This document shows positions 17,684-23,572 of a stretch of 64,000 bases of DNA, one piece after another. Each line of letters starts with the position of its first letter. The stretch's first letter is position 1. Under the pieces are notes generated by a model, which was not told where the DNA came from, did not search any database, and was given only the letters and a program-made list of their open reading frames with translations. Made by a program: the position numbers and the translations under genes. This DNA is from Escherichia coli (GTDB lineage Bacteria > Pseudomonadota > Gammaproteobacteria > Enterobacterales > Enterobacteriaceae), in assembly GCF_003334335.1 (NCBI RefSeq), contig NZ_QOWQ01000015.1; one strand, written 5' to 3'.

Positions 17684-19507
17684 GTGATCGAAAAATTGCG
17701 TAATATCGCCATCATCGCGCACGTAGACCATGGTAAAACCACCCTGGTAGACAAGCTGCTCCAACAATCCGGTACGTTCGACTCTCGTGCCGAAACCCAA
17801 GAGCGCGTGATGGACTCCAACGATTTGGAGAAAGAGCGTGGGATTACCATCCTCGCGAAAAACACCGCTATCAAATGGAATGATTACCGTATCAACATCG
17901 TTGATACCCCGGGGCACGCCGACTTCGGTGGTGAAGTTGAACGTGTAATGTCCATGGTAGACTCAGTGCTGCTGGTGGTTGACGCATTTGACGGCCCGAT
18001 GCCGCAAACGCGCTTCGTAACCAAAAAAGCGTTTGCTTACGGCCTGAAGCCGATTGTTGTTATCAACAAAGTTGACCGCCCTGGCGCGCGTCCTGATTGG
18101 GTTGTGGATCAGGTATTCGATCTGTTCGTTAACCTCGACGCGACCGACGAGCAGCTGGACTTCCCGATCGTTTACGCTTCTGCGCTGAACGGTATCGCGG
18201 GTCTGGACCACGAAGATATGGCGGAAGACATGACCCCGCTGTACCAGGCGATTGTTGACCACGTTCCTGCGCCGGACGTTGACCTTGACGGTCCGTTCCA
18301 GATGCAGATTTCTCAGCTCGATTACAACAGCTATGTTGGCGTTATCGGCATTGGCCGCATCAAGCGCGGTAAAGTGAAGCCGAACCAGCAGGTCACTATC
18401 ATCGATAGCGAAGGCAAAACCCGCAACGCGAAAGTCGGTAAAGTGCTGGGCCACCTCGGTCTGGAACGTATCGAAACCGATCTGGCGGAAGCTGGCGATA
18501 TCGTTGCGATCACGGGCCTTGGCGAACTGAACATTTCTGACACCGTTTGCGACACGCAAAACGTTGAAGCGCTGCCGGCACTCTCCGTTGATGAGCCGAC
18601 CGTTTCTATGTTCTTCTGCGTTAACACCTCGCCGTTCTGCGGTAAAGAAGGTAAGTTCGTAACGTCTCGTCAGATCCTGGATCGTCTGAACAAAGAACTG
18701 GTACACAACGTTGCGCTGCGCGTAGAAGAAACCGAAGACGCCGATGCGTTCCGCGTTTCTGGTCGTGGCGAACTGCACCTGTCTGTTCTGATCGAAAACA
18801 TGCGTCGTGAAGGTTTCGAACTGGCGGTATCCCGTCCGAAAGTTATCTTCCGTGAAATCGACGGTCGTAAACAAGAGCCGTATGAAAACGTGACTCTGGA
18901 CGTTGAAGAACAGCATCAGGGTTCTGTAATGCAGGCGCTGGGCGAACGTAAAGGCGACCTGAAAAACATGAATCCAGACGGTAAAGGCCGCGTACGTCTC
19001 GACTACGTGATCCCAAGCCGTGGTCTGATTGGCTTCCGTTCTGAGTTCATGACCATGACTTCCGGTACTGGTCTGCTGTACTCCACCTTCAGCCACTACG
19101 ACGACGTACGTCCGGGTGAAGTGGGTCAGCGTCAGAACGGCGTACTGATCTCTAACGGTCAGGGTAAAGCGGTCGCGTTCGCGCTGTTCGGTCTGCAGGA
19201 TCGCGGTAAGCTGTTCCTCGGTCACGGTGCAGAAGTTTACGAAGGTCAGATTATCGGTATTCATAGCCGCTCTAACGACCTGACTGTAAACTGCCTGACC
19301 GGTAAGAAACTGACCAACATGCGTGCTTCCGGTACTGACGAAGCCGTTGTTCTGGTTCCGCCTATCCGCATGACTCTGGAACAAGCTCTGGAGTTCATCG
19401 ATGATGACGAACTGGTAGAAGTGACTCCGACCTCTATCCGTATTCGTAAACGTCACCTGACGGAAAACGATCGTCGCCGCGCCAACCGCGCACCGAAAGA
19501 CGATTAA
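17684..19507 (+). CDS. typA: Ribosome-dependent translational GTPase TypA/BipA
   Basis: 607-aa ORF with GTG start at 17684 and GAGG Shine-Dalgarno at 17672-17675; G motifs [18 protein letters not shown]; recognised by recall. Confidence 0.95.
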
Positions 19508-19524
19508 TTTCGTTTTTTAGTCAT

Positions 19525-19557
19525 AAAAAACCTGCCAGCGATGGCAGGTTTTTTTTT
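19525..19557 (+). terminator. Rho-independent terminator after typA
   Basis: Hairpin cctgccagcgatggcagg flanked by A-run and followed by T9. Confidence 0.85.
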
Positions 19558-19723
19558 GCCTGTCGTGAGCGCACACCAATGCGAGTATCTCCCTTATAAG
19601 TCTGTGGTTACGTCAATAGAGAGCTTTGTCACAATTATCTGCAAAGTCATACGCCGTTAATTGCTTTCTTTTTTGGCGTAAGCGTAAGATGCTTCATCTG
19701 GTTTAAACCAAAAGGATTAAACA

Positions 19724-20434
19724 ATGGCGGAGAATCAATCCACCGTAGAAAATGCAAAAGAGAAACTGGATCGGTGGTTGAAAGATGGCATCACCACGCC
19801 GGGTGGAAAACTCCCTTCAGAAAGAGAGCTGGGAGAACTGCTGGGCATTAAACGTATGACGCTGCGCCAGGCGTTGTTGAACCTCGAGGCAGAATCCAAA
19901 ATCTTCCGTAAGGATCGTAAGGGGTGGTTCGTGACCCAGCCGCGATTTAATTACAGTCCGGAGCTGTCGGCGAGCTTTCAGCGGGCCGCAATTGAGCAAG
20001 GGCGAGAGCCTTCCTGGGGGTTTACCGAGAAAAACCGTACCAGCGATATTCCCGAGACGCTCGCGCCACTGATTGCAGTGACGCCATCAACTGAACTCTA
20101 TCGCATCACCGGCTGGGGGGCGCTGGAAGGACATAAAGTTTTCTATCACGAAACATATATTAATCCTGAAGTTGCTCCGGGCTTTATTGAACAACTTGAA
20201 AACCACTCATTTTCTGCAGTCTGGGAAAAGTGCTACCAAAAAGAGACGGTAGTAAAAAAATTGATTTTCAAACCCGTCAGAATGCCGGGCGATATCAGCA
20301 AGTATCTTGGCGGTTCTGCGGGTATGCCAGCGATCTTAATTGAAAAGCATCGCGCCGACCAGCAAGGCAATATTGTCCAAATAGATATTGAATATTGGCG
20401 ATTTGAGGCCGTAGACCTCATCATTAATCTGTAG
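19724..20434 (+). CDS. yihL: GntR-family transcriptional regulator YihL
   Basis: 236-aa ORF; N-terminal winged-HTH region (LPSERELGELLGIKRMTLRQAL); recognised by recall. Confidence 0.88.
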   Translation: MAENQSTVENAKEKLDRWLKDGITTPGGKLPSERELGELLGIKRMTLRQALLNLEAESKIFRKDRKGWFVTQPRFNYSPELSASFQRAAIEQGREPSWGFTEKNRTSDIPETLAPLIAVTPSTELYRITGWGALEGHKVFYHETYINPEVAPGFIEQLENHSFSAVWEKCYQKETVVKKLIFKPVRMPGDISKYLGGSAGMPAILIEKHRADQQGNIVQIDIEYWRFEAVDLIINL

Positions 20435-20441
20435 GTGTTTT

Positions 20442-21422
20442 ATGGTGACAATAAATAACGCAAGAAAGATTCTACAACGTGTCGACACTCTTCCTCTTTA
20501 TTTACATGCTTATGCCTTTCATTTAAATATGCGGCTGGAAAGAGTGTTGCCTGCTGATTTACTTGATATCGCAAGTGAAAATAATCTACGTGGCGTCAAA
20601 ATCCATGTTCTCGATGGCGAGCGTTTTTCTCTTGGTAATATGGACGATAAAGAACTCTCTGCCTTTGGGGATAAAGCCCGCCGTCTGAACCTTGATATTC
20701 ATATTGAAACCAGCGCCTCAGATAAGGCATCTATTGACGAAGCCGTCGCCATCGCGTTGAAAACTGGGGCATCGTCCGTACGTTTTTATCCACGTTATGA
20801 AGGTAATTTGCGCGACGTATTATCGATTATCGCTAACGACATTGCCTATGTACGGGAAACGTATCAGGACAGCGGCCTGACTTTTACGATCGAGCAGCAT
20901 GAAGATTTAAAAAGTCATGAGCTGGTGTCGCTGGTCAAAGAAAGTGAGATGGAATCTCTTTCCTTACTGTTTGATTTTGCGAACATGATCAATGCAAATG
21001 AGCATCCCATCGACGCTTTAAAAACGATGGCACCGCATATTACCCAGGTCCATATCAAAGATGCCTTGATCGTTAAAGAACCGGGTGGCCTGGGTCATAA
21101 AGCCTGTATTTCAGGTCAGGGTGATATGCCGTTCAAAGCGTTATTAACGCACCTTATCTGCCTGGGTGATGATGAGCCGCAGGTGACGGCATATGGCCTG
21201 GAAGAAGAGGTTGATTACTATGCACCGGCGTTCCGCTTTGAAGACGAAGATGATAATCCGTGGATCCCTTATCGCCAGATGAGTGAAACACCATTGCCAG
21301 AAAATCATTTACTGGATGCGCGGTTACGTAAAGAAAAAGAAGATGCAATTAATCAGATAAATCATGTGCGTAACGTACTACAACAAATCAAACAAGAGGC
21401 AAACCATCTTCTGAACCACTAA
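20442..21422 (+). CDS. yihM: Putative sugar-phosphate isomerase/epimerase (xylose isomerase-like TIM barrel) YihM
   Basis: 326-aa ORF 8 bp after yihL, likely co-transcribed; identified by recall; function uncharacterised. Confidence 0.85.
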   Translation: MVTINNARKILQRVDTLPLYLHAYAFHLNMRLERVLPADLLDIASENNLRGVKIHVLDGERFSLGNMDDKELSAFGDKARRLNLDIHIETSASDKASIDEAVAIALKTGASSVRFYPRYEGNLRDVLSIIANDIAYVRETYQDSGLTFTIEQHEDLKSHELVSLVKESEMESLSLLFDFANMINANEHPIDALKTMAPHITQVHIKDALIVKEPGGLGHKACISGQGDMPFKALLTHLICLGDDEPQVTAYGLEEEVDYYAPAFRFEDEDDNPWIPYRQMSETPLPENHLLDARLRKEKEDAINQINHVRNVLQQIKQEANHLLNH

Positions 21423-21523
21423 TAAGTTTTAACTCATACGCAGTTAATAAAACCATTCCATATGAATGGTCGGTATCTTATTGCCTTTAAAACAGTGATT
21501 TTAAAAATCGCTTAGGGGATGTT

Positions 21524-22789
21524 ATGCTCACGAAAAAGAAATGGGCGTTATTTAGTCTATTAACACTGTGTGGCGGTACAATTTATAAATTACCGTCGCT
21601 GAAAGATGCGTTTTATATCCCGATGCAGGAATATTTCCATTTGACCAATGGTCAAATTGGTAATGCTATGTCGGTAAACTCATTTGTCACCACAGTGGGC
21701 TTTTTTCTGTCTATTTATTTTGCCGATAAACTACCGCGCAGATACACCATGTCATTCTCACTCATTGCGACAGGATTACTGGGTGTTTATTTGACGACAA
21801 TGCCGGGGTATTGGGGCATCCTCTTTGTCTGGGCGCTATTTGGCGTTACTTGCGACATGATGAACTGGCCGGTCTTGCTCAAGTCGGTAAGTCGATTGGG
21901 CAATAGCGAACAACAAGGTCGGTTGTTTGGCTTCTTCGAAACAGGGCGTGGCATTGTCGATACCGTGGTGGCATTTTCTGCGTTGGCAGTATTTACCTGG
22001 TTTGGCAGTGGCTTATTAGGTTTTAAAGCAGGCATCTGGTTCTATTCCCTTATTGTGATTGCCGTAGGCATTATTATTTTCTTTGTCCTGAATGACAAAG
22101 AAGAGGCACCGTCCGTTGAGGTGAAAAAAGAAGACGGAGCATCGAAAAACACCAGTATGACCTCGGTGCTGAAAGACAAAACTATCTGGCTTATCGCTTT
22201 TAACGTCTTCTTCGTTTACGCGGTTTACTGTGGCCTGACATTCTTCATTCCATTCCTGAAAAACATCTATCTATTGCCCGTTGCGCTGGTGGGGGCTTAC
22301 GGCATCATTAACCAATACTGTCTGAAAATGATTGGTGGACCGATTGGTGGCATGATTTCAGATAAGATCCTGAAATCGCCAAGTAAATATCTATGCTACA
22401 CCTTTATCATTAGTACCGCTGCGCTCGTACTGTTGATTATGCTGCCGCACGAAAGTATGCCGGTCTATTTAGGGATGGCATGTACGCTGGGCTTTGGCGC
22501 GATAGTCTTTACACAGCGAGCCGTATTTTTTGCACCTATCGGCGAAGCAAAAATTGCTGAAAATAAAACAGGTGCGGCGATGGCGTTGGGTAGCTTTATT
22601 GGTTACGCTCCGGCGATGTTCTGCTTCAGTCTGTATGGCTACATTCTGGATTTAAATCCGGGGATTATTGGCTACAAAATCGTGTTTGGCATTATGGCCT
22701 GCTTCGCATTCAGTGGTGCGGTGGTTTCCGTAATGCTGGTTAAGCGTATTAGCCAACGTAAGAAAGAGATGCTGGCGGCTGAAGCTTAA
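21524..22789 (+). CDS. yihN: Putative MFS transporter YihN
   Basis: 421-aa ORF, highly hydrophobic with multiple predicted TM segments; recognised by recall. Confidence 0.88.
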   Translation: MLTKKKWALFSLLTLCGGTIYKLPSLKDAFYIPMQEYFHLTNGQIGNAMSVNSFVTTVGFFLSIYFADKLPRRYTMSFSLIATGLLGVYLTTMPGYWGILFVWALFGVTCDMMNWPVLLKSVSRLGNSEQQGRLFGFFETGRGIVDTVVAFSALAVFTWFGSGLLGFKAGIWFYSLIVIAVGIIIFFVLNDKEEAPSVEVKKEDGASKNTSMTSVLKDKTIWLIAFNVFFVYAVYCGLTFFIPFLKNIYLLPVALVGAYGIINQYCLKMIGGPIGGMISDKILKSPSKYLCYTFIISTAALVLLIMLPHESMPVYLGMACTLGFGAIVFTQRAVFFAPIGEAKIAENKTGAAMALGSFIGYAPAMFCFSLYGYILDLNPGIIGYKIVFGIMACFAFSGAVVSVMLVKRISQRKKEMLAAEA

Positions 22790-22794
22790 TTAAT

Positions 22795-22872
<78 letters not shown>

Positions 22873-22879
22873 TTTCACA

Positions 22880-23572
22880 TCAGAAGAAATACTTCGTCCC
22901 GATACGGATCTGGTTTTGCTCGCGGTGGTACGGTTCGACGTTGCGGTCTAACCAGCGCAATTCGAAATAAGGGAGCCAGTGTTCATTAATACGGTAACGG
23001 AAGGTGTTAGTGATTTCCCAATGATGATCTTTCCCGTTGCTACTATTAAAGTCATTCACTCGCATGAAGTAATGTGGCTCAAATGTATAGGAAAATTTAT
23101 CGGTGATTTTAAAATTCCAGTAGGTGCCAATTTCATAGGTGTCATTATTATCCAGTTCCCCGCTCAAATCTGTTGAACTATAGTTATTATGGTTATAGCG
23201 ATTTCGTACTGTCAGATTAAACCATGGTACAAATTTATAGTTGACGTCCAGATACACTGCACCACCCGAACCGATACTCTTATCATTAATTAAGCCACCG
23301 GGCTGGATGGTTAATTTATCGGTTGGTTTAAATAACGGATACCAGCCTTCAATTTCGTTATATCCATGTTTTAGTTCATCTTCTCGCTGAAAGTTGTAGG
23401 TATTGGTTAACATAATACCCGCGCCCATATCGAAGTTATAACCCACACGTAGCATAACCTCGCCCTGATCGGAGGCAAGATTATATGCCTCCCTGTTTTC
23501 GACGTATGCGCCAGCAAATACCGAGGCAGAGGTCAGAGAAGATAATAAAATTATTGCATTAATCTTTTTCAT
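22880..23572 (-). CDS. ompL: Outer membrane porin OmpL
   Basis: Start placed at ATG 23572 (MKKINAIILLSSLTSASVFA signal peptide, 230 aa); C-terminal aromatic residues (...GTKYFF) typical of beta-barrel OMPs. Confidence 0.9.
   Translation of the reverse strand: MKKINAIILLSSLTSASVFAGAYVENREAYNLASDQGEVMLRVGYNFDMGAGIMLTNTYNFQREDELKHGYNEIEGWYPLFKPTDKLTIQPGGLINDKSIGSGGAVYLDVNYKFVPWFNLTVRNRYNHNNYSSTDLSGELDNNDTYEIGTYWNFKITDKFSYTFEPHYFMRVNDFNSSNGKDHHWEITNTFRYRINEHWLPYFELRWLDRNVEPYHREQNQIRIGTKYFF

Follow-up and report, generated by a model that had tools for sequence, protein, structure and literature searches.

The yihLMN genes of Escherichia coli: an autonomous cassette of a probable repressor, enzyme and importer adjoining the sulfoquinovose genes

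The genes yihL, yihM and yihN of Escherichia coli form an autonomous cassette composed of a probable repressor, a single enzyme and a putative importer, and its link with the neighbouring sulfoquinovose (SQ) genes is one of adjacency only, with no functional tie. It is a legitimate but ordinary orphan operon. The explanation that we favour, to which a probability of roughly 0.45 is assigned, is that the cassette is repressed by YihL, depends on CRP, operates independently of SQ, and imports and converts an amine-bearing organophosph(on)ate in one step.

Gene layout, distribution and the sulfoquinovose neighbourhood

The cassette was analysed within a window of 64,000 nucleotides (the whole stretch of DNA considered here), in which the yihLMN stretch has 100% identity with E. 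coli K-12 MG1655; in the annotation of that strain yihL appears as a GntR family regulator, yihM as a member of the sugar phosphate isomerase/epimerase family and yihN as an MFS transporter. The features of the region are as follows.

19492..19560, plus strand: intrinsic terminator/3'-end element of typA (bipA), a hairpin and T run forming the upstream cassette boundary
19618..19633, plus strand: CRP-like site AGAGAGCTTTGTCACA (TGNGA-N6-TCACA type), a computational match whose centre lies about 71.5 nt ahead of the predicted transcript start
19661..19690, plus strand: inferred weak sigma-70 promoter, TTGCTT (19661-19666), 18-nt spacer, TAAGAT (19685-19690)
19699..19710, plus strand: YihL operator, the 12-bp perfect palindrome TGGTTTAAACCA, from conservation and a ChIP-exo peak
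19724-20434, plus strand: yihL, open reading frame of 236 aa
20442-21422, plus strand: yihM, open reading frame of 326 aa, xylose-isomerase-like TIM barrel
21452..21470, plus strand: small hairpin ACCATTC-CATAT-GAATGGT in the yihM-yihN spacer, seen in the sequence
21524-22789, plus strand: yihN, open reading frame of 421 aa, divergent MFS transporter
22793..22876 (approximate), no strand assigned: REP elements, read from the sequence, forming the downstream cassette boundary
22880-23572, minus strand: ompL, open reading frame, followed by the SQ genes, also on the minus strand

The reading frames, the hairpin with its T run and the REP reading all agree with the initial annotation, in which a strong terminator upstream and REP elements downstream bound the three genes. 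The terminator consists of a 13-bp perfect hairpin (19525-19537/19542-19554) followed by the T run and matches the Rfam family STnc370 just above its gathering score (55.6 bits against 54), while the REP region gives sub-threshold matches on both strands to the REP-derived Rfam family naRNA4. The yihL stop and the yihM start are separated by 7 nt, the start codon beginning 8 nt past the stop as first described, and this spacing suggests translational coupling of the two genes; in paralogous cassettes their counterparts overlap by 4 nt. The stem of the small hairpin between yihM and yihN is kept in Citrobacter with a different loop, and beyond this stem neither a conserved element across genera nor an Rfam family was found in the spacer; no T run follows the stem, and terminator prediction called no terminator there. 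Full-text searches of the literature by gene name, b-number and operon spelling yielded no function for yihL, yihM or yihN, in accord with the earlier statement that no substrate has been assigned; the deletion of yihL in one study was used merely as a linked marker (PMC4759930). Searches on Art22, on PDB 5T1P and on a TIM barrel with RidA, MocR or aminoethylphosphonate likewise returned no functional assignment.

The L-M-N gene order recurs among unrelated neighbours in Enterobacterales, Aeromonas, Photobacterium, Acinetobacter and Neisseriaceae, with further hosts in Morganella, Obesumbacterium, Serratia, Buttiauxella and Edwardsiella, and a second, paralogous cassette is present within the same genomes. 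Among about 76 YihM loci (called with a GC3-aware open reading frame rule), YihN is a companion in 63 and YihL in 54. All three genes are under strong purifying selection, with dN/dS values of 0.02-0.07 (0.06-0.07 for yihL, about 0.02 for yihN) that hold for E. coli against E. whittamii as well. The view of yihLMN as a compact, catabolic-looking unit is thus borne out by the conserved gene order, the yihL-yihM spacing, the operator, the CRP-like site and the selection acting on the three genes.

The position of the cassette beside ompL and the SQ genes, which had been considered meaningful, does not withstand the same comparison. An accessory role in the SQ (yihO-W) or another sulfonate pathway would fit the direct adjacency that E. 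coli shares with a few Citrobacter, and the likeness of regulators and importers points to an aminophosphonate, of which an aminosulfonate would be an isostere. Such a role is nevertheless largely refuted and in our judgement very improbable. The SQ genes flank the cassette in only four of the approximately 76 loci, all in Escherichia or those few Citrobacter, and co-occurrence with yihO-W fails even within E. coli, where the two vary independently (of 5426 genomes, 4423 have yihLMN and 3917 have yihQ) and where strain WB61 carries a clean natural deletion of yihLMN with the SQ cluster intact. Published YihL ChIP-exo data contain no site inside the SQ cluster, which already has CsqR as its own regulator, and yihLMN thus shows neither the co-occurrence nor the co-regulation expected of a member of the sulfo-EMP cluster (yihO-W/csqR). 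Least probable of all the readings is that yihLMN is a silent evolutionary relic, functionless in present-day E. coli. It would fit the lack of a known phenotype or inducer and the fact that about 18% of complete E. coli genomes lack the cassette, while in some strains IS elements interrupt it, but it is contradicted by the low dN/dS values, by the conserved operator, by the expression and in vivo DNA binding of YihL, and by the lower uptake of many dyes reported for a yihN knockout (PMC8131027).

Probable regulation by YihL and a CRP-like site

YihL is a regulator of the GntR/HutC subfamily with a winged helix-turn-helix and a UTRA domain: its orthologues carry PF00392 and PF07702, it matches NCBIfam HutC-type models over its full length, and its best solved relatives are YvoA/NagR and DasR. 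The highest-scoring NCBIfam model is PhnR, at 183 bits against an equivalog cutoff of 297 (296.75; TIGR03337), and identity with annotated PhnR proteins is about 34%. YihL was therefore rejected as PhnR proper, since the score lies below the cutoff and the cassette has no phnW or phnX; PhnR is its closest named family only.

A short palindrome with a GT...AC core, the kind of operator expected of the HutC subfamily, lies near the regulator's own promoter. This palindrome, TGGTTTAAACCA, lies within a conserved block (ATCTGGTTTAAACCAAA, 19696-19712) immediately ahead of the yihL ribosome-binding site, remains invariant within an otherwise diverged upstream alignment, and recurs with no more than one mismatch in 50 of the 54 YihL-bearing loci, in both paralog types. 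Published ChIP-exo data demonstrate in vivo binding of YihL to the region directly upstream of yihL, and the dominant peak (S/N 60.46; NC_000913.2 4058436-4058459, equivalent to window positions 19690-19713) contains the palindrome. Because the palindrome sits within this dominant peak, YihL is most likely a repressor of its own operon.

The promoter hexamers TTGCTT and TAAGAT, as read from the sequence, would form a weak sigma-70 promoter; they match the consensus at 7 of 12 positions, for which reason a consensus scan did not list them. Selection with the RpoD holoenzyme (SELEX) placed a promoter within the typA>yihL spacer, entered as 'yihLM', and since that list names the unit without yihN, the latter may have a promoter of its own (PMC3946193). 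Upstream, the CRP-like site is weak in E. coli, with 8 of 10 core positions in a computational match, and its position is shared by many loci: when the 130 nt preceding the operator were scanned in each of the 54 loci, the best CRP-core match lay 72-76 nt from the operator in about 47 of them, 38 with at least 8/10. The motif occurs in CRP-containing taxa only, the loci of Neisseriaceae and Acinetobacter lacking it. Expression of YihL clusters with that of AraC, MelR, RhaR, FucR, SrlR and similar regulators, which is consistent with membership of the CRP regulon.

The enzyme YihM and the transporter YihN

By its sequence, YihM is a putative metal-dependent, xylose-isomerase-like TIM-barrel enzyme of an uncharacterised PF01261 subfamily, with the (beta/alpha)8 barrel that defines this family (xylose isomerase-like TIM barrel/AP endonuclease 2). 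Loss of the catalytic residues would have spoken against an enzymatic role, but the metal-binding residues of the superfamily are in place: E151, D178 and H204 are invariant among 26 sequences, and E254 is kept in 22, with Gln in the four most distant. In alignments these predicted metal ligands fall on the corresponding motifs of Art22, AsbF and 3tva. The label 'sugar-phosphate isomerase/epimerase-like' holds at the level of the superfamily and not at that of the family, because no specific model is reached. YihM scores 17.2 bits against IolE (cutoff 290) and 15.2 bits against L-Ru5P 3-epimerase (cutoff 200), its sequence match to D-tagatose 3-epimerase has E=0.43, and it has no close characterised relative. 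The best matches of the family profile are an isomerase and a dehydratase, AsbF being the second-best PDB match (E=9e-15).

The 3-dehydroshikimate dehydratases AsbF and QuiC, together with IolE, share the fold of YihM and align with it in the E-x-H, D-x-x-(H/N) and H-x-K-(D/N) motifs; their mechanism, in which a metal-stabilised enolate is formed and a beta-substituent is then lost, is the chemistry proposed for YihM. Art22 (PDB 8z1i), an isomerase of the aurantinin pathway, is 20% identical to YihM, and has E-N-Y where YihM has E-Q-H. Its polyketide-biosynthesis context is unlike that of YihM, and the literature searches yielded no paper on its substrate.

YihN is an MFS protein, as judged from PF07690 in its orthologues and from full-length matches to MFS subfamily models, with no sequence relative in the PDB. 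Its family shows high conservation, many charged residues being invariant. The top NCBIfam match is the OPA/PgtP subfamily at 72.5 bits, against a cutoff of 408 (407.75). In a pairwise reading confined to the TM1 and TM7 blocks (a '--keeplength' alignment distorted later GlpT positions), the phosphate-binding R45 of GlpT (TM1) corresponds to an invariant K27 in YihN, and R269 (TM7) to an invariant Y235. Membership of the OPA family (GlpT/UhpT/PgtP) was accordingly rejected, the score lying far under the cutoff and the arginine pair of GlpT and UhpT being absent, and for the same two reasons a phosphate ester is not established as the substrate of the MFS version of the cassette. We infer that YihN is the importer of the cassette's substrate, a role with which the lower dye uptake of the yihN knockout accords. 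Beside close YihM orthologues in Pseudogulbenkiania (63% identity), Rhizobiaceae and a metagenomic lineage, binding-protein-dependent ABC importers stand in place of the MFS protein.

Partner genes and the probable substrate

The partner genes of YihM in other bacteria suggest an amine-bearing organophosph(on)ate and not a plain sugar or sulfosugar, with the proviso that this evidence comes partly from homologues of 35-47% identity, which may differ in function. On the amine side, RidA has been recruited in two differing gene orders, in Photobacterium and in Proteus (whose cassette also has a YheO-like regulator), and MocR-type regulators stand beside YihM at 12 loci in four lineages; an aminotransferase, a DAO and a ureohydrolase are neighbours at single loci. 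Because the MocR regulators have a PdxR-like score, vitamin-B6-related and aminoacetone-phosphate substrates were considered as well, but they lacked support and were dropped. On the phosph(on)ate side, YihL and its distant counterparts score best with PhnR (183, 155 and 267 bits; cutoff 297), the YihM-linked ABC system resembles PhnS/T/U (PhnT2 434 bits against a cutoff of 458), two non-homologous phosphatases (a HisN-type IMPase and a HAD protein) immediately follow YihM homologues, and a Na/Pi-PhoU protein adjoins others in two lineages. A distant YihM member shares its operon with a kinase, a G3P-oxidase-like protein and a class II aldolase. In E. coli the cassette has no gene for RidA or for a phosphatase. 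In Morganella eut genes adjoin the cassette, and betA/betB-like genes lie near YihM in Rhizobiaceae, a Rhodobacterales MAG and Marinobacterium; these adjacencies are not relied on, as they are possibly inherited synteny.

Some known systems come close to this arrangement. In the 2-aminoethylphosphonate locus of Salmonella and Klebsiella (phnR, phnSTUV, phnWX), PhnR is the best named relative of YihL over its full length, effector domain included, and in Pseudogulbenkiania a near-PhnR regulator (the one at 267 bits) and a PhnS/T/U-like importer stand beside the 63%-identical YihM, where phnWX would sit. In contrast to the phn locus, no regulator reaches the PhnR cutoff, neither the PhnW transaminase nor the PhnX phosphonatase is present, the YihM barrel is without known C-P chemistry, and E. 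coli has an MFS protein instead of an ABC system. The frlABCDR genes of E. coli comprise a HutC-type GntR repressor, the PF01261 TIM-barrel epimerase FrlC, a dedicated transporter and an amine-bearing substrate, fructoselysine, an architecture which is that of yihLMN; however, frl additionally depends on a kinase and a deglycase, where yihLMN has a single enzyme, the transporter families differ, and YihM is not close to FrlC, no specific family model being reached. Deaminating isomerases of the NagB type, with imine hydrolysis by RidA, would have the outcome proposed here, an amino-carbonyl phosphate passing through an imine to a keto product and ammonium in one step and entering central metabolism. 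Their fold is unrelated, and this would be a functional analogy only, drawn from the RidA, MocR and phosphate-related partners.

Other substrates and reactions have to be weighed against this one. If yihLMN were a plain carbohydrate cassette, with YihM a keto-sugar or sugar-phosphate isomerase or 3-epimerase, YihN an importer of a rare sugar, sugar acid or sugar phosphate, and nitrogen irrelevant, then the twofold recruitment of RidA, the amine-sensing MocR regulators, the PhnR-like regulators and the PhnS/T/U-like importers would go unexplained; several hosts (Morganella, Proteus, Neisseriaceae, Acinetobacter) use few sugars, and all specific sugar-enzyme models, IolE and L-Ru5P 3-epimerase included, score near zero, so that we regard this reading as unlikely. 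Doubtful to a slightly greater degree is a phosphodiesterase cassette, in which YihM would hydrolyse a small amine-bearing phosphodiester, e.g. of the glycerophospho-ethanolamine or -choline type, and a phosphatase would finish the reaction where encoded. The two unrelated phosphatases, the Na/Pi-PhoU protein and the aminoethyl-phosph(on)ate-like regulators and importers would all suit such an enzyme, as would the eut and bet adjacencies were they not open to explanation by inherited synteny, and YihM would then have endonuclease IV and CbiR as its counterparts within PF01261. Endonuclease IV has D-x-x-H and a His-rich trinuclear ligand set, whereas YihM has D-x-x-N and lacks that set; the profile matches of YihM are headed by an isomerase and a dehydratase, and RidA would again be left over. 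Proven phosphodiesterases of PF01261 include one that acts on a small molecule, CbiR (bioRxiv 10.1101/2020.09.02.280537). A dehydratase like AsbF or QuiC, whose substrate (3-dehydroshikimate or a similar cyclic keto acid) YihN would import, draws on the AsbF match, on the E-x-H motif common to both enzymes and on one 45%-identical homologue that adjoins a shikimate-dehydrogenase-like gene and a TAXI binding protein. We consider it quite improbable, as this shikimate context is one of about 90 and the RidA, MocR, PhnR-like and phosphatase partners do not fit; no dehydroshikimate-accumulating E. coli is known to make protocatechuate without a foreign dehydratase.

In the preferred reading, that of an imported amine-bearing organophosph(on)ate, the palindrome would overlap the transcript start of a weak, CRP-dependent promoter, and YihL would keep the operon nearly off until a small-molecule inducer occupies its UTRA domain and glucose is absent. 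The substrate would enter through YihN, and YihM, with a divalent metal on E151, D178, H204 and E254 and with H153 as the likely base, would take a proton adjacent to a carbonyl, leading by isomerisation or beta-elimination to a product usable by general metabolism. Judging from the partner genes elsewhere, the substrate may be a small, anionic, amine-bearing organophosphate or phosphonate-like compound that belongs with the amino-sugar or amino-alcohol phosphates. Its conversion could pass through an imine or enamine hydrolysed to a keto product and ammonium, with the assistance of RidA where it is encoded and with downstream release of phosphate in some lineages. For the YihM fold, 2-aminoethylphosphonate, phosphoethanolamine and taurine are chemically unlikely as direct substrates, because no carbonyl adjoins the reacting carbon, as known enzymes of the superfamily need. 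A bolder proposal, which we hold to be improbable, is that the YihM family represent a new activity among the xylose-isomerase-like TIM barrels, as PLP-independent, metal-dependent deaminating isomerases or eliminases that turn an imported amino-organophosphate, or its phosphonate analogue, into a central metabolite and ammonium in one step.

The genes yihL, yihM and yihN are among those of E. coli K-12 without a function, and the analysis makes the problem testable: with a defined operator and a likely dependence on CRP, deletion of yihL in the absence of glucose should turn the operon on, the candidate substrates are narrowed from 'some sugar' to small amine-bearing compounds of the phosph(on)ate type, and the misleading link to SQ is removed. 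Should the substrate prove to be an ordinary rare sugar, the result would be a routine annotation. If the bolder proposal is true, yihLMN and its ABC-type counterparts would constitute a widespread, previously unseen scavenging route for such compounds in gut, soil and marine bacteria; and if YihM deaminates or cleaves a compound of this kind without PLP, this would be a new type of reaction for a well-studied superfamily and would explain the presence of the cassette across Enterobacterales, Vibrionaceae, Aeromonas, Rhizobiaceae and others.

Organization and control of the cassette

The yihL-yihM-yihN cassette is best read, with a probability of roughly 0.85, as an autonomous, YihL-autoregulated unit for uptake and a single enzymatic step, independent of the sulfoquinovose (SQ) genes. 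The 4.5 kb around it show 100% identity to E. coli K-12 MG1655 by sequence comparison, and the order in the MG1655 record is typA, yihL, yihM, yihN, ompL, then the SQ genes yihO-yihV and csqR. All that the initial annotation had described of gene order, reading frames, terminator and REP elements was borne out by the ORFs, the annotation and the sequence. The features, in window positions, are as follows:

19492-19560, + strand: Rfam STnc370 match over the typA/bipA 3' end and terminator (55.6 bits against a gathering score of 54)
19525-19554, + strand: typA terminator, 5' of the cassette; perfect 13-bp hairpin, then a T run
19618-19633: E. coli CRP-like motif, AGAGAGCTTTGTCACA
19661-19690: putative weak promoter read from the sequence; TTGCTT, 18-nt spacer, TAAGAT
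19699-19710: perfect palindrome, TGGTTTAAACCA, core of a 17-nt block
19724-20434, + strand: yihL, ORF annotated as a GntR family regulator
20442-21422, + strand: yihM, ORF annotated as a sugar phosphate isomerase/epimerase family protein
21452-21470, + strand: yihM-yihN spacer hairpin ACCATTC-CATAT-GAATGGT, 7-bp stem with no T run after it
21524-22789, + strand: yihN, ORF annotated as an MFS transporter
~22793-22876: REP elements 3' of the cassette (sequence and Rfam)

Judging by the STnc370 match, typA may end in a small RNA derived from its 3' UTR. The stem of the spacer hairpin is kept in Citrobacter with another loop and is absent from other genera; a conserved element, an Rfam match and a predicted terminator were all sought in the yihM-yihN spacer, and none was found. 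A published promoter list gives the transcription unit as 'yihLM' (PMC3946193), and from this naming yihN might be separately expressed.

The upstream regions of E. coli, Aeromonas, Morganella and Obesumbacterium have diverged overall, but the 17-nt block ATCTGGTTTAAACCAAA is invariant in their alignment. Its palindromic core occurs with no or one mismatch in 50 of the 54 YihL-bearing loci, including both paralog types described below, and always ends about 13 nt 5' of the start codon; it is absent from the Proteus loci, whose regulator differs. In glucose minimal medium, ChIP-exo of myc-tagged YihL yielded three sites, of which one was dominant (S/N of 60.46, NC_000913.2 4058436-4058459, the other two being near 5; Gao et al. 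2021, PMC8464067, supplementary file 5). The reads had been mapped to genome version 2, in which the bipA/typA start is 4056430 (4058407 in version 3; window 17684), and the dominant peak converts to window 19690-19713, enclosing the palindrome; binding of YihL to its own upstream region is thus experimentally shown. There is strong reason to regard the palindrome as the YihL operator and YihL as a repressor. The two weak peaks (S/N ~5), near yqcC and yifB outside the window, were flagged as RNA polymerase-bound too and may be background at highly transcribed sites.

Within 130 nt 5' of the operator, the best match is a CRP-type motif (TGNGA-N6-TCACA) whose spacing from it varies little (72-76 nt), present there at 8/10 or better in 38 loci and in about 47 of the 54 overall; it is missing from Neisseriaceae and Acinetobacter, taxa without CRP. 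Taken with the putative promoter at 19661-19690, the E. coli CRP-like site would be centred near -71.5, and the operator would overlap the transcript start. A promoter in the typA>yihL spacer was detected by SELEX with RpoD holoenzyme (PMC3946193), and the expression profile of YihL groups with those of AraC, MelR, RhaR, FucR, SrlR, MhpR and other catabolic regulators (PMC6055005), both of which agree with this picture of CRP-like site, promoter and operator. CRP-dependent expression of the cassette, and the catabolic role it implies, is somewhat favoured.

Distribution and relation to the sulfoquinovose genes

The search for YihM homologues drew on a 5.8-billion-protein set, 1.84 billion cluster representatives and one genome of each species. 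The same gene order and tight spacing were found in Escherichia, Citrobacter, Raoultella, Serratia, Buttiauxella, Budvicia, Pragia, Edwardsiella, Morganella, Obesumbacterium, Aeromonas, Acinetobacter and Neisseriaceae, while the flanking genes change between genera. In some 76 loci the gene clusters found repeatedly beside YihM are few: YihN (63), YihL (54), an ABC importer (11-15), a MocR-type regulator (12), a HisN-like phosphatase (8) and RidA (4). A second, paralogous cassette, with identities to the first of ~61% for YihM, ~51% for YihN and ~46% for YihL, is present in Citrobacter, Buttiauxella, Shimwellia, Silvania and Photobacterium, some genomes carrying both (paralogous-cassette loci L016/L053 of Citrobacter sp. 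R56, L017/L057, L067/L061 and L037/L058; further L046-L049, L052-L056, L062, L063, L066 and L069). Its operator, ATTGGTTTA[A/T]ACCAGA, is essentially that of the first, so that the YihL-type regulators of both may cross-talk; the two cassettes probably handle related substrates.

Two readings would deny the cassette a role of its own. A silent relic is one, and yihLMN is indeed soft-core in E. coli, with 4423 of 5426 complete genomes having it (4239 of them to at least 80%); on the other hand, yihL, yihM and yihN show dN/dS values of 0.02-0.07 against their orthologues in Escherichia, Citrobacter and Raoultella, which indicates that all three are maintained by selection. The other is an accessory module of the SQ cluster, at which the initial annotation had hinted from adjacency. 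This hint did not hold: ompL and yihO adjoin the cassette in only 4 loci, from Escherichia and two Citrobacter, the others being flanked by typA or unrelated genes; of 5426 E. coli genomes, 3917 have yihQ and 4423 have yihLMN; and strain WB61 carries a clean yihLMN deletion, with the last 66 nt of yihN left and ompL-yihOPQ intact. Furthermore, the SQ cluster has by annotation its own regulator, csqR, and none of the three published YihL ChIP-exo sites lies in it (PMC8464067). That the two units are neighbours is a chance outcome of where insertion took place.

Local variation was also observed. Some strains (E. coli ET12567 and RM10410, genome matches H1 and H2) carry an ISVsa5 (IS4-like) insertion within the yihLMN region, YihM variants of 302 rather than 326 aa occur in some E. 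coli (P0003-P0005), and in a Pseudocitrobacter MAG (L065) yihM is broken into three ORFs, a pseudogene or an assembly error.

Transport, partner genes and the YihM enzyme

In Pseudogulbenkiania, an ABC importer replaces YihN in the operon of YihM (63% identity). The regulator there is PhnR-like (267 bits; cutoff 297) and the binding protein resembles PhnS; permeases, an ATPase and a Na/Pi-PhoU protein are also encoded. Eleven Rhizobiaceae-type loci (YihM 45-47% identical) combine a MocR regulator, PhnS2/T2/U2-like ABC genes (PhnT2-like gene 434 bits against a cutoff of 458), YihM and a HisN-type phosphatase. In a metagenomic lineage (40%), YihM is accompanied by an ABC system of Opp type, a HAD phosphatase and a PhnR-like regulator. 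Because binding-protein-dependent ABC systems work only as importers, import is the most likely role of YihN too. The reduced dye uptake of the Keio yihN deletion is consistent with this: many fluorescent dyes, unrelated and for the most part cationic (among them DiSC3(5), rhodamine 700, thiazole orange and SYBR Green), build up in it to levels 10- to 100-fold lower (PMC8131027). So wide a range of dyes suggests that the effect is indirect, for instance through an altered membrane potential, and not one of direct transport. Membership of YihN in the organophosphate:phosphate antiporter (OPA) family was rejected, as it scores far below the cutoff and the GlpT/UhpT arginine pair is missing (R45 = K27, R269 = Y235); both argue against a phosphate ester, at any rate where the transporter is of the MFS type.

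Three Photobacterium species carry, within the operon (L-M-RidA-N), a gene for a genuine RidA imine/enamine deaminase (160 bits; cutoff 106); the order in Proteus differs (RidA-N-M, with a YheO-like regulator). MocR regulators, which sense amines via PLP, stand beside YihM in Rhizobiaceae, Paracoccus, an actinomycete MAG and one further locus. PhnR is consistently the best-scoring match for YihL and its distant counterparts, and the distant solved relatives of the rhizobial binding protein include AfuA-type proteins, which bind sugar phosphates, a PLP-binding protein (P5PA) and polyamine-binding proteins. The slot directly 3' of YihM is held by two unrelated phosphatases, a Na/Pi-PhoU protein adjoins YihM in two lineages, and a 35%-identical member lies amid glycerol-kinase-like, G3P-oxidase-like and FucA-like aldolase genes. 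An amine on the substrate is possible at slightly under even odds, and a phosphate- or phosphonate-type anion equally so; that it carries both is rather doubtful.

One-off neighbours (shikimate dehydrogenase, hutF, agmatinase, betA/betB-like genes and, in Morganella, the eut operon) point to no single answer. In four Morganella loci (L008, L030, L043, L050) the end of a eut microcompartment operon, with EutQ, EutP, BMC shell, PTA and aldehyde dehydrogenase genes, adjoins the cassette ~200-300 nt 5' of yihL, which may be chance or a hint of an ethanolamine-containing substrate. Choline dehydrogenase or BetA/BetB-like genes are at most a few genes away from a YihM homologue in three lineages (Rhizobiaceae-type loci L074-L076, L080, L083, L089 and L091; L087, a Rhodobacterales MAG; L071, Marinobacterium), the Ensifer choline dehydrogenase being a true BetA by score; this reflects either inherited synteny or a functional link.

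YihM matches Pfam PF01261 weakly (E=2e-8) and none of the specific NCBIfam enzyme models. Its family is small, with 47 clusters (50% identity) at E<1e-30 among 1.84 billion representatives, many of them fragments. An AlphaFold model computed with 26 diverse homologues as input is confident (pLDDT 96.1) and shows a (beta/alpha)8 barrel; to this are added a beta-hairpin (207-222) and, at the C-terminus, some 70 further residues that finish in a long helix. Residues G51, S91, R114, E151, H153, E154, E160, D178, N181, P189, H204, R265, S281 and E298 are invariant, K206 and R278 nearly so, and E254 is Glu in 22 of 26 sequences. Loss of the catalytic residues, named at the outset as what would refute the initial reading, was not seen: E151, D178, H204 and E254 are kept at the strand ends, the metal-binding place of the superfamily, and the E-x-H, D-x-x-N and H-x-K-D motifs have aligned counterparts in Art22 and the dehydratase AsbF. 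The extra invariant arginines hint at an anionic ligand.

Speculatively, YihM would take a proton next to a carbonyl, as do AsbF, IolE and ketose epimerases; an alpha-amino carbonyl substrate would then give an enamine or imine, hydrolysed to a keto product and ammonium in a step that RidA would speed. Competing readings of the enzyme are a plain sugar isomerase or epimerase, an AsbF-like dehydratase, and a small-molecule phosphodiesterase like CbiR or endonuclease IV, for which there is precedent.

Significance

In the literature searched, no function is assigned to yihL, yihM or yihN, which are long-annotated y-genes. This analysis contributes the operator sequence, its placement within the published ChIP-exo peak, and the CRP-like site; the mobile-cassette nature, the paralogous copy and the independence from the SQ genes; and the pattern of amine and phosph(on)ate partners. 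In kind, the cassette is nothing unusual: an operon of repressor, enzyme and transporter, whose enzyme belongs to an uncharacterised subfamily. Not a surprise, yihLMN is a good target for de-orphanisation that is cheap to test.
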